A DNA stretch of 64,000 bases, from sequence record MH791413.1. One strand, written 5' to 3'. Shown piece by piece: positions 1 through 49,181 of the stretch. Numbering within the stretch: the stretch's first letter is position 1; every line of letters starts with the position of its first letter. The notes beneath the pieces are model-generated. The model was not told the DNA's origin, ran no database searches, and saw only the letters and a list, made by a program, of their open reading frames with translations. Source of the DNA: Escherichia phage EcSzw_1. Both the position numbers and the translations under genes were made by a program.

Positions 1-1064
1 GTAGCCCTTAACAGCCTTGTAACATACCCTTTGCAAAATTTTAAAATATCATTAACAAATTCTTAACAACTCTATCAATCTCTTAACATCTCTTCAAAGG
101 TCTTAACAGATTCTTAACAGGACTAACAAGGGTGTAACAGTTATTTAACAAGTGCTACATAGTCTTTACAGAATCTTAACAGATGACTAACAAGAGCTAA
201 CAAGTTAATTTTAAAGGGTTATTTTGTTAAGATAATTAACAAGTTCCTAACAAGTGTTTAATCCTTTTAACAAGCTGTTAACATGGTCACTATCTCTTCT
301 CTTCTCGTTCCCTTAACTTCTCAGTGAATCTCTAAACATCCTCTTAAAAGCTCTGTATAGCTCTGTATAGCCTCTTTTAAGCCCCTTGTAAGGTAACTAT
401 AGCCCAAGTAACTGTAAAGGGCTTTACAGGGCTTTATAGGGGCTTTAAAGGGTATGCCAAGTTGACTAACAAGGATTTAACAAGGTCTTAACAATGATTT
501 AACATACCCCTAACAAGGGTAACTATGCAGGAGTTGTTAAGAATTTGTTAAGAAAATGTTAAGGGGGNTAGCATTTACGTAACTTTTAAGCCACTTTTAA
601 GCAACTTTATAGCCCCTATAACATACTTTTAAGACAATAACAAGCCCTTTTTAGTAGTTCACAAGGGACTAACGAGATGATAAAGCTTGATACCTTATAA
701 GATTCTTTTAAGGCCATAGAAAGCTCTATAAATGGCTTTTAAGAGTGGGTTAATATGATTGCTTAAGTTAGGTTGATAAGCTGTTATAGGGCTTTATAGA
801 GCGTTTTAGAGGGTTGCCCTCCCCTTTGGGTTATGGGCTTATATTTAAGTTGATTTGATAAGATGATATAGAGTAAGCTATAGAGTTATTATTTTTAAGG
901 TCTGGTAAGATTCTCTAAGAGTCTGCATAGGGATTGCATAGACGTAAAAAAGCCCCTATGAGATAGATTCTATGAAGGTAATTCATTACCTGAATCACTA
1001 TCGAATCCATAGAAAGGGGCTGTTAAGGTATCTGGGGCTATTTTAGCCCCGTTGCGGCGTCTCG
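1..1064. repeat. Non-coding repeat-dense region with a dense array of YTAACA(A/G)G-type motifs, CTTTTAAG motifs, short tandem repeats and fragments of the early promoter cassette
   Basis: No ORF of 60 aa or more in any frame. At least 25 copies of (C)TTAACAAG / CTAACAAGG in both orientations within 1-660 (18 in the first 290 bp). Tandem GCTCTGTATAG x2 (350-371) and GGGCTTTAnAGG x3 (418-449). CTTTTAAGCCCCTTGTAA at 377-394 matches the cassette seen upstream of genes at 2142-2222 and 6333-6415. Confidence 0.6.
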
Positions 1065-1313
1065 TTAGTTATGACCGTCCTTGTCATAGTAAAGAGAAAT
1101 GATTTTATCGTTCCAATAGTGCCAATGATTACCATCTTTCACCGCCTCTTGGATAGCTGCAATCCAAAAATCCGATTCAGGGTTATAATCCTTGACAATC
1201 TGGCTAACAAGGCTTTTCACCATATCAAAAGCACTATCTGTACTGATAATGTCAAATTTAACATCCAGTGAGTAAAAACCATATTCGTTAACAGTTGCGC
1301 GGATAGTTGCCAT
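1065..1313 (-). CDS. Hypothetical small early protein (82 aa)
   Basis: ORF in track; ATG at 1311-1313 directly preceded by conserved SD/leader cassette. Confidence 0.5.
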   Translation of the reverse strand: MATIRATVNEYGFYSLDVKFDIISTDSAFDMVKSLVSQIVKDYNPESDFWIAAIQEAVKDGNHWHYWNDKIISLYYDKDGHN

Positions 1314-1400
1314 CTTTGATTCTCCAGTTTAGGATTGATTTGGTAAAGCTCTTTATCTGGGGCTTATACTATCGAACTATAAACCCCTTGTAAAGCACTT
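1314..1400 (-). promoter_or_regulatory. Early promoter/leader cassette copy 1
   Basis: Plus-strand consensus CATTTTGAATCTCCAGTTTAGGATTGATTTGGTAAAGCTCTTTATCTGGGGCTTATACTATCGAACTATAAACCCCTTGTAAAGCAC. On the minus strand: -35 TTTACA (1389-1394), 17-nt spacer, -10 TAGTAT (1366-1371), SD GGAG, ATG. Confidence 0.5.
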
Positions 1401-1598: not shown

Positions 1599-1799
1599 CT
1601 TGAATCTCCAGTTTAGGAAGTAAGCTTGATTGCTTGATAGATACTATAGGGCTTTTAGAAAGTGATTGCAAGCCCTTTTTAGTCTTATCTATAAAGAATC
1701 TTTTAAGTGATTCCTTTTAGATAAAACCCCCTCGAACAAATGTACTATTGTCAAGGGGTATCGTCAAGTAATTTTTGAAAGTTTTTTGTAAGTTGTTGA
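1599..1799 (-). promoter_or_regulatory. Early promoter/leader cassette copy 2 (variant, with hairpin)
   Basis: Conserved leader CTTGAATCTCCAGTTTAGGAAG. Minus strand -35 TTGCAA, 17 nt, -10 TATAGT. Hairpin AGGGCTT / AAGCCCT at 1648-1676 followed by T-tract on the plus strand. Confidence 0.4.
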
Positions 1800-2141
1800 T
1801 TAACTTATAAAGATTTTTTCAGGCTTGACGTAGTTCATTTTTTGGCCTTTAAGTAAATCACTCCAGATTAAAGCGGCAATGTGACCATAACCGGATTCAC
1901 GTAGCGCTTTCATCGTGTTGACTTTTGTTTCAAATCGTGTTGCGTAGTATTCACTGTTAAGGGTTGTTTTGTTCCCTTCATTGTCTGTATGAATGATTTG
2001 CATCACATGAAACGGGCTAACATCCTCTCCGAGATTCCATTGCTCAAAGTATTTTAAACACTGCATAGGCGACATATTATCACTGACTCGTGTAGACCAT
2101 GATGAATTTTCTTTATCGGTAATTACGGTTACATGTGCCAT
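1800..2141 (-). CDS. Hypothetical early protein (113 aa)
   Basis: ORF in track; ATG at 2139-2141 followed by cassette. Confidence 0.5.
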   Translation of the reverse strand: MAHVTVITDKENSSWSTRVSDNMSPMQCLKYFEQWNLGEDVSPFHVMQIIHTDNEGNKTTLNSEYYATRFETKVNTMKALRESGYGHIAALIWSDLLKGQKMNYVKPEKIFIS

Positions 2142-2222
2142 CTTTGAATCTCCAGTTTAGGAAAGCTCTTTATCTGGGGCTTATGGTATCAAGCTTTTAA
2201 GCCCCTTGTANTTGTAAATCTC
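2142..2222 (-). promoter_or_regulatory. Early promoter/leader cassette copy 3
   Basis: CTTTGAATCTCCAGTTTAGGAAAGCTCTTTATCTGGGGCTTATGGTATCAAGCTTTTAAGCCCCTTGTA; N at 2211. Confidence 0.45.
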
Positions 2223-2444
2223 TAAAAATTCATCTTCATTAACATTTTCGTAGTATTCTGCGTTTTCGTCTTCACCTTGTAAGACATAGCAGCCCATTCT
2301 AGACGATTTCGGGTATTCTTGTCTAGCAATATTGCAAGCTTCTACCGCGTTTTGTTTAGTTCCTTCAAAGGATTCTAAAACCCCATAATGGCAATTATTA
2401 GCCCCAGAGCATACAGCAAGCATGAGATAGATTGTAGTTAACAT
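2181..2444 (-). CDS. Hypothetical small secreted or lipoprotein-like protein (87 aa)
   Basis: Hydrophobic N-terminus MLTTIYLMLAVCSG. 3' end reads through the N at 2211 into the cassette (C-terminal YKGLKSLIP is cassette-encoded), so the true stop is uncertain. Confidence 0.4.
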   Translation of the reverse strand: MLTTIYLMLAVCSGANNCHYGVLESFEGTKQNAVEACNIARQEYPKSSRMGCYVLQGEDENAEYYENVNEDEFLEIYXYKGLKSLIP

Positions 2445-2507
2445 GATTTAAGCCCCTTGCAAGCCCCTATGCGGGGCTTTTTAATGTTGTTAGTGTGATT
2501 GTATGGT

Positions 2508-3065
2508 TTACGCTAAAACGTCGTTTACAGTGCTTTCTGTTAAGCTTTCCTGCATTGCGTCTAGCATGTTGCAATAGATAATTGAACTATCATCAGTATT
2601 TTGAATAAAGCTTGCAACTTCTTCAAGTTTTTCATCAACATAGCCTAAATTTGGATTTTTTAAGTTAGGTACAAAAAACGGTGAATACATAGAGTTAAAT
2701 TCTGTGATGTAAACCTTTTTAATCCAATCTTTATCAAAAGATTCTGTAAAGCTTGCGATATCACTCATATTTTCACAAGACCAATCATCTTGCAATTCAT
2801 ATTCTGGAATGTCAAGTTCTAAGATAACAATATTTTGGGTTTTCATCTGAAAAGCTGCTGTGATTGTAGCACTATCAAGAGCATTGCGTAAACCTTCATT
2901 AGTAATTTCTTCAGCATTCATAGAATCAAGGTCATAGAATTTATTAACAGGGTAAACGTAAAAACAACCATCACTATCAGAGCAATTCCAAGCGCCTGAT
3001 GGTTTATCACCGCCATTGATGAGGTTTACAAAGTTTTCTTGAGTAGTACCGTGAAAGCATTTCAT
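2508..3065 (-). CDS. Hypothetical early protein (185 aa)
   Basis: ORF in track; ATG at 3063-3065 followed by cassette. Confidence 0.55.
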   Translation of the reverse strand: MKCFHGTTQENFVNLINGGDKPSGAWNCSDSDGCFYVYPVNKFYDLDSMNAEEITNEGLRNALDSATITAAFQMKTQNIVILELDIPEYELQDDWSCENMSDIASFTESFDKDWIKKVYITEFNSMYSPFFVPNLKNPNLGYVDEKLEEVASFIQNTDDSSIIYCNMLDAMQESLTESTVNDVLA

Positions 3066-3117
3066 TTTGAATCTCCAGTTTAGGATTGATTTGGTAAATC
3101 TCTTTATCTGGGGCTAT
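3066..3117 (-). promoter_or_regulatory. Early promoter/leader cassette copy 4 (interrupted by N run 3118-3124)
   Basis: TTTGAATCTCCAGTTTAGGATTGATTTGGTAAATCTCTTTATCTGGGGCTAT then NNNNNNN. Confidence 0.4.
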
Positions 3118-3368
3118 NNNNNNNTAGTTTTCTTTGAGAAAATTAGTTTAACTGCAACCGTGGGAAGTTCTTCAATACTTGTAAAAAGCGTTACCTTTTG
3201 AGTAACAACCTTGTAACCATTTTTTGCAGCGTATGCCGTGAAACGATTAACCGTATAACTATAAGTTTTTGATGTGTTGTCTGACATATGGTACAAATAG
3301 GGCTTGCCTAAATTTTGAGATTGTGTTAACAGTCGGCAAGTATCAGGAACGTTTAAATAATTAAGCAT
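3114..3368 (-). CDS. Hypothetical small early protein (about 84 aa; 3' end obscured by N run)
   Basis: ORF in track; ATG at 3366-3368; C-terminal codons contain the N run. Confidence 0.4.
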   Translation of the reverse strand: MLNYLNVPDTCRLLTQSQNLGKPYLYHMSDNTSKTYSYTVNRFTAYAAKNGYKVVTQKVTLFTSIEELPTVAVKLIFSKKTXXX

Positions 3369-3453
3369 TTAGATTCTCCAGTTTAGGAAGTGGGATTGCT
3401 TGCCCGTCTGATAAGTAATTTAAGCTATTTAAAAACCAGTGTCAATAGATTTT
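3369..3453 (-). promoter_or_regulatory. Early promoter/leader cassette copy 5 (B-type)
   Basis: TTAGATTCTCCAGTTTAGGAAGTGGGATTGCTTGCCCGTCTGATAAGTAATTT; same B-type at 4211 and 6787. Confidence 0.4.
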
Positions 3454-3858
3454 TTAAAGTTCTGCGTAAATTGCATCACAGATATCACGAAAATCATAGC
3501 TTGTCAAGTTACGTTGTAACCATGTTGCGAAAAAATCAGCTATTGCAAAATTTGCATCATACTCAACAGATAACCACACTTTTACAGCAAATCGAAACAT
3601 TTTCAAGTCAAGTTCTTTATTCATTACTTTTGATTTGCCTAACATGTCAACCATTTCATATTGTGCGCCGTCAAGTGTAACACCTGATGCAACATTTGCA
3701 AGTGAATTTTTTACGCTTTCAACGTCTAAGATTGCACCTTGAATCTTTCCGATAATGTTATGCAGTGTTTCGTCTGGTGCTGCTGATGTAATTACGTTGA
3801 TGCGATTAACGGTCAAACGTGCTTTCAGGATTGCAGTGTCACGAGTATTCATAGCCAT
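3454..3858 (-). CDS. Hypothetical early protein (134 aa)
   Basis: ORF in track; ATG at 3856-3858 followed by cassette. Confidence 0.5.
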   Translation of the reverse strand: MAMNTRDTAILKARLTVNRINVITSAAPDETLHNIIGKIQGAILDVESVKNSLANVASGVTLDGAQYEMVDMLGKSKVMNKELDLKMFRFAVKVWLSVEYDANFAIADFFATWLQRNLTSYDFRDICDAIYAEL

Positions 3859-3945
3859 TTTTAAATCTCCAGTTTAGGGGTTATCGATAAAATCTCTTTA
3901 TCTGGGGCTATACTAGCAAACTTTATAACCCCATGTAANAGACTA
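3859..3945 (-). promoter_or_regulatory. Early promoter/leader cassette copy 6
   Basis: TTTTAAATCTCCAGTTTAGGGGTTATCGATAAAATCTCTTTATCTGGGGCTATACTAGCAAACTTTATAACCCCATGTAA; N at 3939. Confidence 0.45.
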
Positions 3946-4210
3946 AATACAACTTTTTCCCGTTAACAATGATGTAACTTACACCGCTATTGCTGTAAAC
4001 ATCTTGATAGATTCTGCGTAACTTGCCTGAATAGCGCACTTTCCAAGATGTAGGAATCTTTTTACCGTATCCGGTGGATGTTTTTTGTAAACCTGCTAAT
4101 TGCCAATCTAAAATGTGTTGTTCTGCTGTTAACTCTTCAAAGTTTAATACGCCGTCTACATAGTGCTTTAAAGTAACGTTTAAGGTGTGACCATTATTTG
4201 TAGTATACAT
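3923..4210 (-). CDS. Hypothetical small early protein (95 aa)
   Basis: ORF in track; 3' end overlaps cassette and contains N at 3939. Confidence 0.4.
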   Translation of the reverse strand: MYTTNNGHTLNVTLKHYVDGVLNFEELTAEQHILDWQLAGLQKTSTGYGKKIPTSWKVRYSGKLRRIYQDVYSNSGVSYIIVNGKKLYLVXYMGL

Positions 4211-4302
4211 TTTGAATCTCCAGTTTAGGAAGTGGGCTTGCTTGCCCGTCTGATAAGTAATTTACTTGTTTCCGTTACCAGTTGCAAGCCCTTTTTAGAA
4301 AT
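4211..4302 (-). promoter_or_regulatory. Early promoter/leader cassette copy 7 (B-type)
   Basis: TTTGAATCTCCAGTTTAGGAAGTGGGCTTGCTTGCCCGTCTGATAAGTAATTTA plus GTTGCAAGCCCTTTTTAG element shared with copy 2. Confidence 0.4.
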
Positions 4303-4626
4303 TTATTTCCGTTTGCTTATCTCGTGAACAATAACAGCGTGATAATCTTTCAAATTACTAATATTTAAAGCATTTAGTAAAGCATTATAATCATCAACTA
4401 ACTGAAAATCACCGCTTAGAATGTCACTAACCTGATATGTGTTAGCCTTGAATCTGAAGCCCATCTCTAAACGCTTTAATTGTTCTACGTTTAAACGCTC
4501 TAGAAAGGACGTCACAAGGTTATTATTGATTTGCCTTGTGATTGCATCACTTGCCGCCTGATGCGCTTTATAGGCTTTATACAGTGCTAAAATAGCAATA
4601 AATAAGGCAACTCCAGAAATTAGCAT
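4303..4626 (-). CDS. Hypothetical membrane protein (107 aa)
   Basis: N-terminal hydrophobic helix MLISGVALFIAILALY; start overlaps end of upstream gene. Confidence 0.5.
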   Translation of the reverse strand: MLISGVALFIAILALYKAYKAHQAASDAITRQINNNLVTSFLERLNVEQLKRLEMGFRFKANTYQVSDILSGDFQLVDDYNALLNALNISNLKDYHAVIVHEISKRK

Positions 4627-4916
4627 GATGATTTACCTTTATGAAATAGTTTACCAGTGTGACTAATCTCAAAAGAATCTATCATATCTTTTGTTGATTT
4701 AACAGAACTTTTATTTGCATTGTCATAGATATCTACCTGAAGCAATGGCTTTTTGTATTCTTTACAAAAGTTCCAAATACAGACAACAACTTCTTTACCA
4801 TTGATTTTTCCGTGATACCATTCTGTTACTTCATGAGTACGGCGCATAGATTCTACAAATTTGATATCTTGTAAAAGTTTGCTCAACTTGGAACGTACAT
4901 TTGCAGCAATAAACAT
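4620..4916 (-). CDS. Hypothetical early protein (98 aa)
   Basis: ORF in track; ATG at 4914-4916 followed by cassette. Confidence 0.5.
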   Translation of the reverse strand: MFIAANVRSKLSKLLQDIKFVESMRRTHEVTEWYHGKINGKEVVVCIWNFCKEYKKPLLQVDIYDNANKSSVKSTKDMIDSFEISHTGKLFHKGKSSC

Positions 4917-5006
4917 TTTAGAATCTCCAGTTTAGGATTGATTTGGTAAATCTCTTTATCTGGGGCTATNCTTATCAACCTGATAACCCCATGTAAAGCA
5001 ATTTAT
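4917..5006 (-). promoter_or_regulatory. Early promoter/leader cassette copy 8
   Basis: TTTAGAATCTCCAGTTTAGGATTGATTTGGTAAATCTCTTTATCTGGGGCTAT(N)CTTATCAACCTGATAACCCCATGTAAAGCAAT. Confidence 0.45.
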
Positions 5007-5519
5007 TTAGATATCAAAAATATTCATCATTAAATCTTTCAAGGCTTCTAAACGTTCCATGACTTCAGATTCTGCGTCTGCGTTGCTTACTTCCTCTTTT
5101 AGTCTATCCTCTAAATCGTCGCCGTCGCTATAGCACCAATCAAAGGCATATCCAAGATAAAAACTATCTAAAACCGTGTTTCCGTTTGCAGCTACAACTT
5201 TTGCAGATAGGCTATATTCTGAAGCCTCTAAATCCCTTTCTAGTTCTTTCTGTAAGCTGATGTAAGCCTCTCGTGATGGATTTTCCCGGCCTTGTTTTGC
5301 ATAGTCGCTAGAAAGCTGTTTAAGGCTATAGCGTAAAGGGATTGCATATTCAAATTCATTACGTTGATAGTTAGGATTCTTAATAGTTACCCCGCCTTGA
5401 TGGTTGTTTGTAAATTCCCAATCACTGATGTTATGGCTTGCTTCATAGCAGTTAACAGCTTCATATATGATAGAGAATTTCTCTTTTACAACTTCAAAGG
5501 TAGCGTCTACAGTTTTCAT
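5007..5519 (-). CDS. Hypothetical early protein (170 aa)
   Basis: ORF in track; ATG at 5517-5519 followed by cassette. Confidence 0.55.
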   Translation of the reverse strand: MKTVDATFEVVKEKFSIIYEAVNCYEASHNISDWEFTNNHQGGVTIKNPNYQRNEFEYAIPLRYSLKQLSSDYAKQGRENPSREAYISLQKELERDLEASEYSLSAKVVAANGNTVLDSFYLGYAFDWCYSDGDDLEDRLKEEVSNADAESEVMERLEALKDLMMNIFDI

Positions 5520-5604
5520 TTTGAATCTCCAGTTTAGGATTGATTGTAAAGCTCTTTATCTGGGGCTTATATTAGCAACTCATAAACCCCATGTAAAGCA
5601 CTTT
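5520..5604 (-). promoter_or_regulatory. Early promoter/leader cassette copy 9
   Basis: Minus strand -35 TTTACA, 17 nt, -10 TAATAT, SD GGAG; plus-strand TTGAATCTCCAGTTTAGGATTGATTGTAAAGCTCTTTATCTGGGGCTTATATTAGCAACTCATAAACCCCATGTAAAGCAC. Confidence 0.5.
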
Positions 5605-5862
5605 TTAGATTAAATTTGCAGTTAATGCCAAGTGCATTTTATAACCTTGTATAGTGTAAACATTGGTTTTACCAATAGTCTTTACACCTTTGAAAAGGTT
5701 GTAAGAGTTATGCTTTAAGTTTAATTGCTTGTCACACTTTACGCCCCATCTTACAGCAGAATCTTTCCCGTTGTCAATCACTTTTCCGTCTAAATCTTTT
5801 GCCAGTAAACGAGCGTTATCACGAGTTTTTGCATTAACTACTACGTTTTTGATGATAGCCAT
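5605..5862 (-). CDS. Hypothetical small early protein (85 aa)
   Basis: ORF in track; ATG at 5860-5862 followed by cassette. Confidence 0.5.
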   Translation of the reverse strand: MAIIKNVVVNAKTRDNARLLAKDLDGKVIDNGKDSAVRWGVKCDKQLNLKHNSYNLFKGVKTIGKTNVYTIQGYKMHLALTANLI

Positions 5863-5951
5863 TTTTGAATCTCCAGTTTAGGGGTTATTGATAAAATCTC
5901 TTTATCTGGGGCTTATACTATCGAACTATAAACCCCCTGTAAAGCACTTTA
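5863..5951 (-). promoter_or_regulatory. Early promoter/leader cassette copy 10
   Basis: Near-identical to copy 1 (GGGGCTTATACTATCGAACTATAAACCCCCTGTAAAGCAC); -35 TTTACA, 17 nt, -10 TAGTAT on the minus strand. Confidence 0.5.
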
Positions 5952-6332
5952 TTAGCTAATTTTAAAGATAGTCACATAGCCATCACTACCAATCATCTGA
6001 GAAACACCAGCTTTCTCGACATTGTAACCCATTTTATCAAGATGGTAAATTGCATCTTCATAGCCGTAGGCATCACCTTGATAACGTCTCTTCTCACATT
6101 TTATCAAGGTTTTACCACGTCCAGCAAGTGCATTAATGATAGCTTTATCACCTGATAAACTACCATCTAACATAGTTGCGCGATAATGGTTTATTTTGTT
6201 GCCATTTACATCATACTTAAAATTATATGCGTGAACAACAATTATTTTACCTTTGAATTTTTCATCAAGTGTTTTCTCCAGTACATCGCGGAAGTTTTCT
6301 TTATTGATGAATTTAGGCGCACGATATTTCAT
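5952..6332 (-). CDS. Hypothetical early protein (126 aa)
   Basis: ORF in track; ATG at 6330-6332 followed by cassette. Confidence 0.55.
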   Translation of the reverse strand: MKYRAPKFINKENFRDVLEKTLDEKFKGKIIVVHAYNFKYDVNGNKINHYRATMLDGSLSGDKAIINALAGRGKTLIKCEKRRYQGDAYGYEDAIYHLDKMGYNVEKAGVSQMIGSDGYVTIFKIS

Positions 6333-6568: not shown

Positions 6569-6579
6569 TCATCAAGCCC

Positions 6580-7036: not shown

Positions 7037-7219
7037 CCTGCACAATTCTAAAATGATTTTTCTTGCCCGACACTCGCCGGGTCTGCACGTTTTGAAAATG
7101 AAAAATCTCTTTGGAGTCCACCTGCACAAATTGAAAATGAATTTTCCCTTTGGAGTTCAAAATTTTCTCTACAGATTTCTGTCCAGACTTTTACCTGCAC
7201 AATTTTAAAATGAAAAAGC
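7037..7219. repeat. Four direct repeats of a ~26 bp unit CCTGCACAAWTTNAAAATGAWWWWNC (starts 7037, 7082, 7121, 7194) plus two copies each of CTCTACAGATTT (6959, 7167) and CTTTGGAGTYCA (7108, 7148)
   Basis: Read directly from sequence; the only ORF across it (6891..7208 +) translates repeats and the G-tract. Confidence 0.55.
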
Positions 7220-7286
7220 CCTCCTTACCTGAAAATTTTACCAGATAAGAAAGGCTTAGTCTATTGTGAATATGCTACAGAGTTTC

Positions 7287-8069
7287 TTAGTTCTTTGCAG
7301 CTAAGAACTTGATGTTAGAAATGTCTACAATTGCTTCAGCATCTTTCTCATTTGCTGCAAGAATGTACACATCAGGTTCACTTCCAAATGTCACTGCACG
7401 TTGCATACTACCTTTCAACGGCGGGGTAACTTGAGCGTTACTTAGAGACATTCTCTCAACCGGAGGGTTACTCTGATGTACCTTGTTCTTACGATGCCTG
7501 AAGAGGATAACTCCGTCTTCGTTGACAACGGCTACCCCTGCAAAGTATTGTGGTTCACTGTGATTACCCCATGTTGACAGAGTACTAAACATTGCCTCTT
7601 CAAATACGTAAAGGTAAACATCAACATCTTTCAAGATGTGATTCATAATTACCACAACAGCTTTCGGGTCAAGTCCACCAATACCTGCACCAATCATTGG
7701 GAGACCAACTTTCTTCAGTTGATTCACTTTGCAGTACTGGCTAAGACTCAACAAAGCACTCTCAAGAGCATTGTAACGAGCATCTTTACCAGTCTTCAAC
7801 TGAGTGTATAGGTTAGCAATACGGCCTTGTTTAAGACGTGATACAGAGAGTTTACCAAGCAGTTTCTGACAAGGTTTATGCTCTCTTCCTCCTGCTACAC
7901 GGTAGACTTCGGCATCAGTTTCATAGGCTTTTGGGTAACCTTTAGAAATCTTGTAAGCAATACCTGCACCCATCAGGTTCATACAGTTGCAACCGTGACC
8001 AATGATATCAAACTTACCTTTTTCAAAGTCTGCGAAGATATCACCTTTGATGACTTTTACAATACCCAT
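7287..8069 (-). CDS. Macrodomain protein (ADP-ribose binding or hydrolase; TARG1/DarG-like signature) with uncharacterised C-terminal extension
   Basis: N-terminal VIKGDIFADF…DIIGHGCNCMNLMGAGIAYKI matches the GDxF … H-x-C … MGAGIA pattern of TARG1/OARD1-type macrodomains (from memory); about 110 aa C-terminal region unassigned. Confidence 0.65.
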   Translation of the reverse strand: MGIVKVIKGDIFADFEKGKFDIIGHGCNCMNLMGAGIAYKISKGYPKAYETDAEVYRVAGGREHKPCQKLLGKLSVSRLKQGRIANLYTQLKTGKDARYNALESALLSLSQYCKVNQLKKVGLPMIGAGIGGLDPKAVVVIMNHILKDVDVYLYVFEEAMFSTLSTWGNHSEPQYFAGVAVVNEDGVILFRHRKNKVHQSNPPVERMSLSNAQVTPPLKGSMQRAVTFGSEPDVYILAANEKDAEAIVDISNIKFLAAKN

Positions 8070-10256: not shown

Positions 10257-10952
10257 TTAGTGTTTGATAAGCATTGTGTTAATTTCTGGAAGGATTCGTT
10301 TAACCTTCTCAACATTCCTTACTGTATCTTCTATAAAACATACTACATCATAGTACGGAAGAATGCAAGACTGAATCATACGAACTTTCAAACTTTCTGC
10401 ACTGATTCTATTTGAACCAAAACCACGCATAAAAAGCATGTAGTCAGTCACGATATGCTTGTCAATAAACAAATGGGTTGGTACACGTTGAGACTCACCA
10501 CGAGCAGTTAAAACACCGATTGCAGCACTTTTATGGATGCCTGAAATGATATTAAAGATGTACGTAGGTTGTGCATCAACTGACTCAATCAAGTTTGTAT
10601 ACTGTGACAGAGTGCCATCTTCCAGATATGTTGAGTTTGTTGGCTTATCAAACTTAGTGAGAACACCATCAATATCTGTTAAAACCATTGGCTTCTTCAT
10701 ATCAAGGTCTTTTGCAACCAAGATTAAGCTGTCACGTTTAACGGCTACTGACTTACCTGTTTGAAGGTCTGTACAGAGAACTGTTTCAGCAGATGAATGA
10801 AAGTCTTTGAAGTCACATTCAACAGCCCTTGCAGTATCTGCAAAGTCTTCTTTCATAAGGTCTGTCCAGCTTGCAGCACTGATATCTATAGCCAGAGGGT
10901 TGATATCGTAAGCGTGACAAAATACCTTATCCAATTGTTTTAATTCGCTCAT
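10257..10952 (-). CDS. HAD-superfamily hydrolase (putative nucleotidase or phosphatase)
   Basis: HAD motif I LTDIDGVLT; track start is a TTG at 10994; ATG at 10950-10952 with upstream AAGG chosen. Confidence 0.55.
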   Translation of the reverse strand: MSELKQLDKVFCHAYDINPLAIDISAASWTDLMKEDFADTARAVECDFKDFHSSAETVLCTDLQTGKSVAVKRDSLILVAKDLDMKKPMVLTDIDGVLTKFDKPTNSTYLEDGTLSQYTNLIESVDAQPTYIFNIISGIHKSAAIGVLTARGESQRVPTHLFIDKHIVTDYMLFMRGFGSNRISAESLKVRMIQSCILPYYDVVCFIEDTVRNVEKVKRILPEINTMLIKH

Positions 10953-11478
10953 GTTTAACCTTTTTGATGTTTGTTGCAAACTCACATTGAGCAAGCACCT
11001 TCATGTTATTGTACACATCTTGAGAGTATTGTCTAGCTTTCGGAATACGGTATGAATAACCTGCATTGTATGAAGCTAAGACACGCTGTAAAGAGTATTT
11101 CCCATTAGGATTACCATGAACCTTAGTCCAGAACTGAAGCTCTTTGTGTGTCTCCTTTGCAGCATAATCGAAGTCTCTGATAAGTTTCTTCTTAGCTACG
11201 TTTGGGTTAACTTTGTTACGCTTTACAACAGTCTTCAAGTGATTCTGGAACAAACCATAATCGTGAGTCTTTTTATTTTCAAGACGAAGACCTAACTCTG
11301 ACTCTTGTAAGGCTATAGCGGCTAAGGTTAATCCCCAACCTTTACCCATCTCTTTCTCACCGTAGTGATAAGCTTTAAGCATGTTTGTTTTCTGACTGAT
11401 GGATAACTCTGGACAGTCTGAAGCGACTGCCAAATGTGCTGTTAAGAATAAGCACAAACCTAAAATGAACTTCTTCAT
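10927..11478 (-). CDS. Lytic transglycosylase (SLT domain) with Sec signal peptide
   Basis: Signal peptide MKKFILGLCLFLTAHLAVA; SLT motifs QESELG, YGLFQ, SYNAGYS. Confidence 0.6.
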   Translation of the reverse strand: MKKFILGLCLFLTAHLAVASDCPELSISQKTNMLKAYHYGEKEMGKGWGLTLAAIALQESELGLRLENKKTHDYGLFQNHLKTVVKRNKVNPNVAKKKLIRDFDYAAKETHKELQFWTKVHGNPNGKYSLQRVLASYNAGYSYRIPKARQYSQDVYNNMKVLAQCEFATNIKKVKHERIKTIG

Positions 11479-37129: not shown

Positions 37130-37386
37130 AATGCCCTCTTTTAAGTACCTATTAAACTTAATCTGTTTTCTTTACGTATTCTATACGTATAACTTTAAAG
37201 CTTCTTAAAAGCTATTAAAAATCTTTTAAGGGTTTTAAAGAAACTGTATAGTTAATCTGTAAAGGGAGTCTTTTAAGTTAAAACCCACTTCGCAAAGATT
37301 AACACCTTGTCAAGTGAATTGTCAACTTGCTTTTTGAAACTTTTTGCAGTAATGTATTGAGTCAATGATTTTGAGAGGGAGTAAAA
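37130..37386. promoter_or_regulatory. Divergent AT-rich control region between minus-strand block and DNA polymerase gene
   Basis: Tandem palindromes TTACGTAT (37162-37169) and TATACGTATA (37172-37181); three CTTTTAAG motifs; TTGTCAA direct repeat; SD GAGGGAG before ATG 37387. Confidence 0.5.
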
Positions 37387-46717: not shown

Positions 46718-46796
46718 TATATCACCTCATCAGCCAAGATGGTGAGAATACCTATGAAAATATTAACACCATCTTAACAATTAGTCAACAAATTGA

Positions 46797-49181
46797 TTAC
46801 GCCGTTCTAACCCATGCCATCAATCTAATAAACAGGTTTACAACACTGAATGCTGAACCAGAACCTGTACCACCAGTGTTACCACTAACTGTGTGGGTGT
46901 GAGCACCGATACCTACTGTGTGGGCATGGTTACCAGCAGAGGCAGCAGTACCAGAGATTGTGTGGGTGTGAGCACCACCTGCATCAGTATAACCTGGCCC
47001 TGTACCAATCTTACCACCACCACCACCAGAATAGTGTGTAGAGTTCTGACCAATCCACGAGATTGCATGGTTATGGCTACCAGCAGATGCAGCAGAACCA
47101 CTCACAGAGTGAGTATGAGCACCCGTTGTGTTAGATGTTTTAGTACCGTAGTCAAAGCTTGATGTTGTAGCTGAGAAGCTGTGAGTGTGTGAAGGGATAT
47201 GCCCTACAGATAACGTCACAGTATCCGCACCACCAACTGATTTAACATCTGAACCGTTTGCTGCACCAATCCTAACTGTTCTTCCAACACCCTCATTCAG
47301 ATACGTCCAAGTCATACCTGCAAGAGTCGTGTTAGGGTTCTGGTTAGTTGCAAACCATGTTACAATCCCCACTGGATAGACTTTCTTAAGGTCTGTTGAG
47401 TCAGTTACAGCAGATGCAATTTTCTGGTCAACTTCAGCTTTAGTGTACGCACCAAGTTCTGAAGGGGTTGGCTTAGTACCGTCTGTGTAAATCTTCTCAA
47501 AAGTTACTGTGTCAGTTTCTGTCAAGTTTCTTGCAAGCCAGATACCTTTTGCTGAGTAGTTAGCTAAGAAAGCCAACTGACCAACACCTGTATCTCTCTT
47601 CGCAAAAACATGAAGATATGCTGCTGAATCTGCTGGATAGCTTGGGATAACACTTGCAGCAGGTGTCTGTAGCATTGCTGAGTAGCCTTGAGGCTTGTTC
47701 CAGTCTGCTCTTGTAGCAATAGAGATAATTCTACCAACTGTTGCACCATGACCTGTAGAACTAATCACCAAGTCTGTCGCTGTGCTTCCACTCACTTTCA
47801 AGAATCTTGCATCTAAGTTGCCCCAATCAGAAGGTTTTACCTGTCCAGTAATCTGTAGAGATTTAGACAAAAGGACTTCATCAGACAAATCAATTCTTGC
47901 ACCAGTCAAGTAGTTGTGGAAAGATGCAACACCAGAACCATTTGTACCACAACCAATATACCACTTGTTAGAGTTATCAGTATTCTTCCCAACGATGTAA
48001 GAAGCATTATTCTGAACTTTGCTGTAGATTCTTAGTGCTTCGCCATCTGATTGAATGTTTTGTTGAAGAGTGAACGTGTTAGCTTCATTCTTCTTAGCAA
48101 GATTAGCATATGTACCAATCAAAACATAGCGAGAGTCAATATTAGTCCAATCGGTAGGCTGAACCTGTCCAGTGATTGCAAGACTCTTGTTCACCCTAAC
48201 CATGTTGTCAAGCAACACATAGGTATCATTTGAGATGTTTGTCAAGACAACTGAGCTACTACCATCTGCATAGTTACCTACAGCCCACTTCATAGAAGCA
48301 TCTGTGTTCTGACCTTCGATGTAAAGTGCCTTACCACTTGTCAAGTTCTTCAGAGTTAATCTTGCACCATCACCAAGTAACGTTGTAGTACCTCTGAAGG
48401 TGTTGTTTCCAGTAATCGTGTTAGCCGCTGCCAACTGAACAAATCTTTGGTCTGCTGCATCACGAGTGTAGAATCTTGCATCAAAGTTACCAAAATCTGA
48501 AGGAACAACCTGTCCAGTTACCTGAAGAGACTTGTTAATACCTACAGCACCAGCACCAAGAACGATATTAGTGTTCTGCCTTGTATTAGCCAAAGTCACA
48601 TCTGTTCCAGCACCAAGGTTACCAAGGGTGAATCTGACGTTATTTGCTACATCTCTTCCCTCATAATACAACGCAGACTCTGTAGTGTTTTTTAAAGTTA
48701 AACCTGCGTTATTGGTCTGGAAAATTTGACTTGCCGTGAAGGTGTTTTGAGTACCTTTGATAGCAAATCTTGCATCATTCTCATCATTAGTTCTCATCCC
48801 AAGTTCGTTAGGAGATGGCTTATTCAGAGTGTGATAAACTGTTGCACTTCTCGAAGCATCTGCAATAGTTAGTTTAAGACCATTTGCATTAAGTTTGAAA
48901 GTTTTTGCAGTGTCGCCAAAGACAATTTCAGAATTACCTGTTGGGTCAAGTAAGTCTTTTCCTCCATAGGTAAGTTTAACAATTCCTAAATTACCTGTCA
49001 TGGTTCCACCAACTAATTGCAGAAATCTTTCCAATCTAAATGATGCAAGGAAATCTGCATAAGTCATTCTACGGTCTTCATCACCTAGCATCTCAGTTCT
49101 TTTCTTTACTCTGACATGCAATAGGTCATCAGAACGAATCTCACTAATCGAGTTTAATTCACTCAATTTAAATTCTGCCAT
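46797..49181 (-). CDS. Long tail fibre protein with C-terminal His-x-His repeat tip
   Basis: 794 aa; C-terminal GAHTHSVSG … GSHNHAISW … GAHTHTISG … NHAHTVGIGAHTHTVSG repeats. Confidence 0.7.
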   Translation of the reverse strand: MAEFKLSELNSISEIRSDDLLHVRVKKRTEMLGDEDRRMTYADFLASFRLERFLQLVGGTMTGNLGIVKLTYGGKDLLDPTGNSEIVFGDTAKTFKLNANGLKLTIADASRSATVYHTLNKPSPNELGMRTNDENDARFAIKGTQNTFTASQIFQTNNAGLTLKNTTESALYYEGRDVANNVRFTLGNLGAGTDVTLANTRQNTNIVLGAGAVGINKSLQVTGQVVPSDFGNFDARFYTRDAADQRFVQLAAANTITGNNTFRGTTTLLGDGARLTLKNLTSGKALYIEGQNTDASMKWAVGNYADGSSSVVLTNISNDTYVLLDNMVRVNKSLAITGQVQPTDWTNIDSRYVLIGTYANLAKKNEANTFTLQQNIQSDGEALRIYSKVQNNASYIVGKNTDNSNKWYIGCGTNGSGVASFHNYLTGARIDLSDEVLLSKSLQITGQVKPSDWGNLDARFLKVSGSTATDLVISSTGHGATVGRIISIATRADWNKPQGYSAMLQTPAASVIPSYPADSAAYLHVFAKRDTGVGQLAFLANYSAKGIWLARNLTETDTVTFEKIYTDGTKPTPSELGAYTKAEVDQKIASAVTDSTDLKKVYPVGIVTWFATNQNPNTTLAGMTWTYLNEGVGRTVRIGAANGSDVKSVGGADTVTLSVGHIPSHTHSFSATTSSFDYGTKTSNTTGAHTHSVSGSAASAGSHNHAISWIGQNSTHYSGGGGGKIGTGPGYTDAGGAHTHTISGTAASAGNHAHTVGIGAHTHTVSGNTGGTGSGSAFSVVNLFIRLMAWVRTA

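Follow-up and report, generated by a model that had tools for sequence, protein, structure and literature searches.

Phages related to Felix O1 are known to carry short direct terminal repeats (DTRs). The 608-bp repeat of UAB_Phi87 was shown by Bal31 digestion and run-off sequencing, that of Pr103Blw is annotated at both ends as 581-bp 'short direct terminal repeats' from PhageTerm, short terminal repeats were inferred for Felix O1 itself, and Erwinia members of the subfamily were assigned short DTRs by PhageTerm. The published descriptions that we found give the length of the repeat only, with no mention of an internal motif array. Outside T7, the recognition and duplication of short exact terminal repeats are poorly understood, and no terminase DNA-recognition subunit is known for the Felix O1-like phages, which are widely used for typing, biocontrol and therapy directed at Salmonella and E. 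coli. Here, we analysed 64,000 nucleotides of the genome of Escherichia phage EcSzw_1 (MH791413.1; this whole stretch is referred to as the window). By homology, its bases 1-568 are almost certainly the DTR of the virion DNA, and they are filled by a helically phased array of TGTTA elements (TAACA on the opposite strand). This phased array appears to be undescribed: our literature search returned no paper describing it or linking ArcA, the oxygen-response regulator of the host, to these phages, which is no proof that none exists.

At the level of the repeat, the locus does not differ from what is known for the group. The DTRs of UAB_Phi87 and Pr103Blw are homologous to it, have the same boundaries and lie in the same place between convergent gene blocks. 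The array invites wider comparison. In T7, as here, a short exact terminal repeat is accompanied by many regularly spaced copies of a short motif: in the T7 sequence, CCTAAAG recurs at 13-nt spacing between 175 and 341, with copies also inside the 160-bp repeat. T7 is however an unrelated phage, in which the main array, with a 13-nt period and no known ligand, is located immediately outside the repeat. The array described here takes up the repeat itself, its period is 11 nt, and its elements match the site of a known host regulator. In lambda cosB (gpNu1 R sites and a host IHF site) and P1 pac (hexamer repeats, IHF/HU), repeated elements lie beside the terminase cut and a host architectural cofactor is involved. 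Those are cohesive-end and headful systems with few sites on one side of the cut, while in EcSzw_1 some 27 sites (~27) are spread across the whole interval between two cuts, and the terminase DNA-binding subunit is not identifiable. Finally, ArcA-P operators of E. coli (icdA, acs, phoH) have the same TGTTA core in 11-bp direct repeats, in groups of 2-5 with extra elements at one or two helical turns. They overlap promoters and contain at most five repeats, in contrast to the ~27 elements found here in a promoter-less DTR with more G+C in the spacers. ArcA has been described as an accessory or architectural protein at the psi site of pSC101 and at oriC. It is also reported, in a paper on plasmid R1, to act at the transfer-gene promoter of F-like plasmids. 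These cases are precedents for recruitment of ArcA-P by mobile elements and in DNA transactions, none of them at a phage genome end or in an array so large.

The window derives from a Felix O1-like myovirus (Ounavirinae). Its first 1-1.4 kb matched ~260 phage records by megablast and blastn, all of them Felix O1-like (Felixounavirus, Suspvirus and Mooglevirus), the closest being Escherichia phage EP1 with 94.5% identity. In complete, circularly collapsed relatives, the homologue of the first kilobase forms the middle and right part of a ~1.66 kb non-coding interval, and two gene blocks converge on the non-coding interval around the repeat (momo, warpig, EP1 and Bas63; the open reading frames (ORFs) of the window agree). 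Position 1 of the window aligns to position 2 or to the penultimate base of at least eight separately deposited records, those with an end at this point being Pr103Blw, D4, I14.1, ZX4221, CRP22, SPJ41, ECP2307 and NBEco004. Four of these records, Pr103Blw, D4, SPJ41 and CRP22, were compared at both ends: each carries an exact repeat (579-613 bp, boundaries identical), so placed that the virion DNA starts 5' with GCCCCCTTAACA and ends 3' with TGTTAAGGGCTACC. The repeat boundaries, GGTAGCCC... and ...AAGGGGGC, are conserved among relatives, and the DTRs of 13 relatives are 77-95% identical to that of the window. Position 1 corresponds to the second base of the repeat, the first G being absent (relatives start GGTAGCCC), and the N at 568 corresponds to its final base, a C in relatives. 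A first-pass annotation of this DNA had treated 1-1064 as one element with a role that could not be determined from the window. The comparison with mapped relatives settles the terminal location of 1-568. The annotation's proposal of a packaging or terminal region thus holds for this part, which is homologous to the mapped virion end. The kilobase breaks up into three elements, i.e. the DTR, to which the TTAACA array is limited, a unique spacer with a different motif, and terminators.

Immediately outside the inner boundary of the DTR (GGGGGC/TAGC, the slash marking the boundary, conserved in all relatives compared) lies TAGCATTTACGTAACTTTTAAGCCA (569-593), which is conserved in Felixounavirus, Suspvirus and, with changes, Mooglevirus. 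We presume that it is the outer half of one terminase cut site. In relatives, the 15-25 bp outside either cut site are conserved, and inward of each cut, at 6-8 bp, a G/C block is found together with an inward-pointing TTAACA.

Several records bear on the repeat in other ways. In the close relative EcSzw-2 (MH791400.1), window 335-1400 corresponds to record positions 1-1055 and window 1-383 to 3308-3690 (100% identity); this record was seemingly opened inside the terminal repeat with its first part displaced, which may be an assembly artefact. The 'repeat_region' annotations of momo and warpig were rejected as terminal repeats, as they mark only short internal repeats. That of PC79-13 (1-127, 127 bp at the end of a 'circular' record) was also set aside; it looks like an assembler k-mer overlap and not a biological repeat.

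The array itself was characterised by motif counts. YTAACA occurs 26 times in 1-1064 (20 on the plus and 6 on the minus strand), matching the at least 25 copies in both orientations reported at first pass, i.e. 24.4/kb versus 1.95/kb in the other 62.9 kb. The longer word YTAACAAG occurs at 9.4/kb versus 0.16/kb in the rest of the window. All but one of the 26 copies lie within 1-568, where 1000 dinucleotide-preserving shuffles of the same 568 bases yielded 1.72±1.33 (maximum 7) against the 25 observed, so that the frequency exceeds what composition predicts. Counted as TGTTA cores, there are 27 in 568 bp, versus 3.35/kb elsewhere in the window. The spacing between successive same-strand elements is exactly 11 nt in 12 of 21 intervals and mostly 20, 31 or 33 nt in the remainder; 14 same-strand core pairs stand exactly 11 nt apart, in clusters of 2-5. 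Over all pair distances, phase coherence peaks at 10.3-10.5 nt (R = 0.74), which places the elements on a single face of the helix. Tandem Repeats Finder (TRF) detected many short arrays with periods of 10-11 or 20-22 nt in 1-1064, in line with the tandem short repeats noted earlier.

The elements fall into three groups. The left cluster of TAACA direct repeats (9-283, plus strand) comprises 17 elements on the plus strand (starting at 9, 20, 53, 64, 84, 104, 115, 124, 135, 146, 177, 188, 198, 237, 248, 268 and 279) and two on the minus strand (225 and 276), with spacings of 11, 20, 31 and 33 nt. Further in, five TAACA elements on the plus strand follow one another at exactly 11 nt (467-515; starts at 467, 478, 489, 500 and 511). 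Finally, three inverted elements (TTGTTAAGAATTTGTTAAGAAAATGTTAAG, minus strand; 534-568, the elements themselves at 534-563) adjoin the inner boundary of the DTR. We consider it highly likely that the array is made of functional protein-binding sites, and probable that it contributes to the formation or the biology of the ends.

An exact IHF consensus, TATCAATCTCTTA, is found inside the DTR at 73-85, and Salmonella himA/himD mutants have been reported to be resistant to Felix O1. This single site is not conserved in Pr103Blw or momo; it is probably a chance match, and IHF was rejected as the ligand of the array.

The array is also conserved. In an alignment of 14 DTRs with pairwise identities of 77-95%, TAACA/TGTTA core columns are 95.9% identical to the window versus 80.0% for the other columns, a difference that none of the 568 circular shifts of the core mask reaches. 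In 3-kb slices of nine enteric relatives, strong sites are found solely between the conserved boundaries. There is hardly any DNA-level alignment with Erwinia phage Prophecy, but its record begins at the homologous left end (A/GCCACTTTTACATTTCGTTAACA, the slash marking the end) and a homologous outer flank, AAGTAGATATACA, lies 439 bp from it, which predicts a 439-bp repeat; this predicted repeat contains 22 cores versus 4 and 6 in its 600-nt flanks. Pectobacterium phage Wc4-1, whose alignment is likewise marginal, is enriched for the array as well. The motif families next to the core drift, as in Prophecy, where the flank motif has changed to CTTCTAAG and the DTR core has not; the core itself is the same across phages of Escherichia, Salmonella, Shigella, Citrobacter, Erwinia and Pectobacterium. 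Cores more constrained than spacers, in an array that persists across phage genera, bear out the general idea of the first-pass annotation that these are sites for a DNA-binding protein.

Which protein might recognise such sites? The repeat element of ArcA is 10 bp long (ATGTTAAAAA) with a conserved TGTTA core, and an ArcA box consists of two elements 11 bp apart, centre to centre, 12 bp not being tolerated. Most ArcA-P sites contain 3-5 elements at 11- or 22-bp spacing (groups range from 2 to 5), and near-consensus repeats are occupied even under aerobic conditions. We rebuilt the ArcA-box matrix from 115 of 128 E. coli boxes derived by chromatin immunoprecipitation (Park et al. Table S3), for which the training scores are 9.6-21.5 bits; the published cut-off is 9-10 bits. 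The DTR contains 18 boxes scoring at least 9 bits, 13 at least 12 and 9 at least 15, with a maximum of 22.7 bits, versus 1.28, 0.31 and 0.06 in shuffled DTRs. Scores are 11-22 bits in the left cluster, 12.9-21.5 bits in the five-element group, and 21.9 and 22.7 bits for the inverted elements; four boxes, at 21.5-22.7 bits, rank with the best host sites, which head the training set. The density of boxes reaching 15 bits is 15.8/kb in the DTR versus 0.06/kb, a chance level, in the rest of the window, and the other 63 kb contain 15 boxes of at least 12 bits where composition predicts 13.9±2.7. The DTR thus has the TGTTA direct repeats, the 11-bp spacing and the above-cut-off scores of ArcA sites; an overlapping regulated promoter was not found, there being no credible promoter in the DTR. 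Consensus half-sites of seven other regulators of the OmpR family (PhoP, PhoB, OmpR, CpxR, KdpE, PmrA and TorR) are not enriched in the DTR. In sequence, spacing and cluster size, the elements fit the phosphorylated regulator, ArcA-P, better than any other candidate compared.

The only other multi-element site of the motif in the window lies at 46763-46791 on the minus strand, where three TGTT(G/A)A repeats 11 nt apart form boxes of 20.4 and 15.1 bits. The site is located within a 79-nt spacer, flanked by the tail-fibre gene on one side and by two small genes without known function on the other, is conserved in Bas63 and overlaps a sigma-70-like promoter, TTGACT-N17-TAATAT. ArcA operators usually overlap promoters in this way. 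The same site is overlapped by a match to the IHF consensus (46786-46798).

Arrays of this kind were also looked for in other phages. The terminal repeat of T5 was considered as a second case (arcB mutants resist both phages) and ruled out: no array is present in the initial 50 kb of T5, a stretch that takes in its 10-kb terminal repeat, and ArcA boxes occur there at 0.22/kb, the background density. The left terminal repeat of T5 does hold two isolated strong ArcA-type boxes, at 5316 (23.6 bits; in the non-coding gap between T5.009 and hegG) and at 6578 (21.0 bits). A scan of IMG/VR for TGTTAA-N5-TGTTAA-N5-TGTTAA yielded, beyond Ounavirinae contigs and among the loci read, mostly simple tandem repeats of 11 nt from AT-rich genomes. 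Inverted TTAACA / TGTTAA sets with 11-nt spacing, intergenic and upstream of genes, are present in a few uncultivated viral contigs (GC 0.42-0.51). In three of them, such sets lie at 7150-7600, 10870-11000 and 2240-2310, one each; these three contigs have no match in the phage collection and no protein-level similarity to the ORFs of the window or of Bas63.

A mechanism can be proposed from these features. The same ~570 bp would be found at either end of the packaged DNA and, in replicating concatemers, as a single copy per junction, presenting a one-sided array of ~27 TGTTA(A) elements, in clusters of 2-5 at 11 bp, with helical phase kept between clusters. We infer that a protein recognising tandem direct repeats would coat or wrap this ~570-bp segment on one face, and that the resulting complex would mark the concatemer junction and position the terminase at the two conserved boundary sequences. 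The repeat would then be duplicated by strand-displacement synthesis from staggered nicks made ~570 bp apart on opposite strands. Nicking and strand-displacement synthesis form the classical model for exact terminal repeats. ArcA could serve here as an architectural cofactor, as IHF does at lambda cos; being a pre-existing host protein, it could occupy both ends of the infecting DNA straight after entry. Protection of the ends, or bringing them together, by the bound protein is speculation. Taken as a whole, i.e. a DTR with a phased array bound by a tandem-repeat-recognising protein that marks the ends, with ArcA as the best-fitting candidate, this is the interpretation towards which we lean. 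Its last part, that ArcA is the physiological ligand, is a tentative prediction from the matrix match. A bolder proposal, which we put forward as a possibility and no more firmly, is that the genome ends of an entire subfamily of virulent enterobacterial phages are made of ArcA consensus sites. ArcA-P, present before the DNA enters, would coat both ends and every concatemer junction. This would couple end protection, end synapsis or packaging to the oxygen and redox state of the host and would titrate the regulator as well; the protein would also control at least one phage promoter, that at 46.77 kb.

Several observations weigh against this interpretation. The termini of EcSzw_1 itself are deduced from homology, and there is no second copy of the DTR within the window, which covers one end only. 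The spacers between phage elements are less AT-rich than those of host ArcA sites, and the phage elements carry little information outside TGTTAA. A five-base core with one-turn spacing could by chance also be that of a phage protein's site. Moreover, the array coincides exactly with the cut sites, which speaks for the packaging machinery more than for a host regulator. A literature search for Felix O1 together with ArcA returned nothing relevant, a gene-essentiality paper on Bas63 holds nothing about the non-coding DNA in question, and ArcA binding is predicted. A Salmonella transposon screen lists arcB, not arcA, among the genes for Felix O1 resistance; arcB came up for a T5-like phage without such an array as well, and its effect was put down to RpoS by the authors. 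The Felix O1-like phages also grow well aerobically, when ArcA-P is low, which makes it doubtful that ArcA is essential for packaging. On the side of ArcA, Bas63 encodes, besides the aerobic NrdAB, an anaerobic ribonucleotide reductase (NrdG and NrdD, the latter interrupted by a homing endonuclease; 1630-6054), which indicates adaptation to anaerobic hosts.

A reading that we regard as a serious contender, if still short of probable, is one in which the elements are recognition sites of a phage-encoded protein, a small terminase subunit or another packaging or end-binding factor, and the likeness to ArcA sites is coincidental. The ends of the array coincide exactly with the two cut sites, each of which has an element pointing inward at a distance of 6-8 bp, and, as in the lambda cosB and P1 pac regions cited above, terminase recognition regions elsewhere are short-repeat arrays beside the cut. 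Scarcity of ArcA-P during aerobic growth and the lack of any report of arcA as a Felix O1 host factor fit this reading as well. No such protein can be identified, however. Neither Pfam nor PHROGs recognised a small terminase near the large-subunit gene, nor is one described in the literature, a missing annotation that does not exclude one; the group's small terminase being still unassigned, a candidate may exist. Among the matches listed, a Pfam scan (E <= 0.0012) of 101 uncharacterised Bas63 proteins found no OmpR-type domain, and a phage-encoded OmpR-type protein was set aside on this basis. The same set contains one protein matching the DUF5681 domain and a single small Cro/C1-type helix-turn-helix protein, of a fold that usually binds inverted repeats. 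Two further observations speak for a host transcription factor over a terminase: the core is identical across genera while the flank motifs change (CTTTTAAG to CTTCTAAG), which is easier to reconcile with a conserved host protein, and at 46.77 kb the motif lies over a promoter, as is more typical of transcription factors. The two ligands are not mutually exclusive; ArcA and a phage protein could both bind.

Other roles for the array fare less well. A host-factor sink had been among the candidates raised at first pass, and ArcA is now a concrete, though unproven, factor for it. In this scenario, about 50 sites per genome (~50), multiplied by replication, would titrate ArcA-P off host promoters and de-repress respiratory and tricarboxylic acid cycle genes, the array having no role in packaging. 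The density and quality of the ArcA-type boxes, far above any host site with its 2-5 repeats, would suit a sink, as would the anaerobic ribonucleotide reductase genes of Bas63, which suggest that anaerobic hosts matter to the group; yet a sink could sit anywhere, and in every genus examined the array is limited to the DTR between the cut sites. We therefore consider a sink improbable. A replication origin with iterons, also suggested previously, is less probable still. Phased short direct repeats with 11/22-nt periods in non-coding DNA are what one would look for, but 1-1064 lacks DnaA boxes (the window as a whole has 3, versus 10 expected), a distinctly AT-rich segment that could serve as an unwinding element and an adjoining initiator gene; the cumulative GC-skew minimum is at 37 kb, and the array is bounded by packaging cuts. 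As little credence is given to the TTAACA units being -35-like hexamers, acting as promoters or RNA-polymerase decoys, or decayed copies of an early promoter cassette. TTAACA is one mismatch from TTGACA, and one true cassette fragment does occur at 374-390. Promoter-like sites in the DTR nevertheless reach at most 9 of 12 matches, none with a good -10, and decaying relics would not keep 96% core conservation and exact 11-nt spacing across genera. A non-coding RNA was rejected too: an Rfam search of 1-2500 gave no match at E <= 1, and single-strand structure is absent from the repeat.

An array so phased and conserved, and filling the repeat exactly, offers a concrete handle on the mechanism of end formation in this group. 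Were ArcA the ligand, a phage genome end would be made of host transcription-factor sites, tying packaging or end stability to gut-like anaerobic physiology, and phage performance would vary with host genotype and oxygen, which is relevant to therapy.

The centre of the DTR (284-465) is devoid of TAACA elements and contains instead other 10-11-nt tandem repeats, AGCTCTGTAT at 349-371 and TAAAGGGCTT at 415-452 (TRF), and a decayed early-promoter fragment; k-mer analysis found GGCTTTA and TATAGC enriched there. The fragment, at 374-390, is identical over 17 nt to the early promoter cassettes at 2194 and 6393, and it bears out the presence of cassette remnants noted at first pass. The full cassette, an early promoter and leader (…TTTACAAGGGG…ATAAGCCCCAGATAAAGAGC…), precedes small leftward genes on the minus strand in at least eight copies between 1351 and 6380, its marker CTTTATCTGGGGC being found at 1351, 2168, 3102, 3896, 4954, 5554, 5900 and 6367. 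The 13 N bases of the window are not randomly placed (568, 2211, 3118-3124, 3939, 4970, 6410 and 17318), and those at 2211 and 6410 are found at equivalent points of two cassette copies, where each immediately follows CCCCTTGTA. This suggests that the N positions reflect ambiguous consensus calls at repeat-related sites of the source assembly.

Beyond the DTR, a unique non-coding spacer (569-944) without ORF or Rfam match carries repeats of the CTTTTAAG/TATAGAG type, partly spaced by 11 nt, with TTTTAAG and TATAGAG as over-represented words. CTTTTAAG occurs six times on the plus and once on the minus strand in 1-1064, versus 0.22/kb elsewhere in the window. As had been pointed out, this second motif is shared with the 37130-37386 region, where CTTTTAAG is found at 37138, 37223 and 37270 and CTTAAAAG at 37204. 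On the far side of the repeat, as seen in EP1, the non-coding DNA uses CTCTATA in place of the spacer words. The spacer motif also includes TTTAAG-N5-TTTAAG (583-601), the only pair at 11-nt spacing in 569-944. It resembles the PmrA/BasR box (YTTAAK-N5-YTTAAK), a likeness of little weight given the single pair and the change to CTTCTAAG in the Erwinia phage.

The first kilobase is free of credible ORFs, as the first-pass annotation had stated: only three of at least 30 amino acids are present in 1-1064 (31-33 amino acids), and none is longer. The first coding sequence beside the genome end (1065-1313, minus strand; 82 amino acids, phrog_4559, function unknown) reads toward that end and stops at 1065, and the genes neighbouring 1-1064 have no recognisable function. 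Directly after it lies a small hairpin, GGGGCUA-AAA-UAGCCCC (1034-1050, minus strand), followed by the Rho-independent terminator of the leftward early genes (945-1021, minus strand), a long GC-clamped hairpin and UUUUUU that folds with -46.2 kcal/mol (z = -5.9). These hairpins (945-1050) terminate the early genes read toward the genome end. The terminators of the two convergent blocks (EP1 2870-2925 and window 945-1021) share ~22 nt, ATAGAATCTATCTCATAGGGGC, in inverted orientation.

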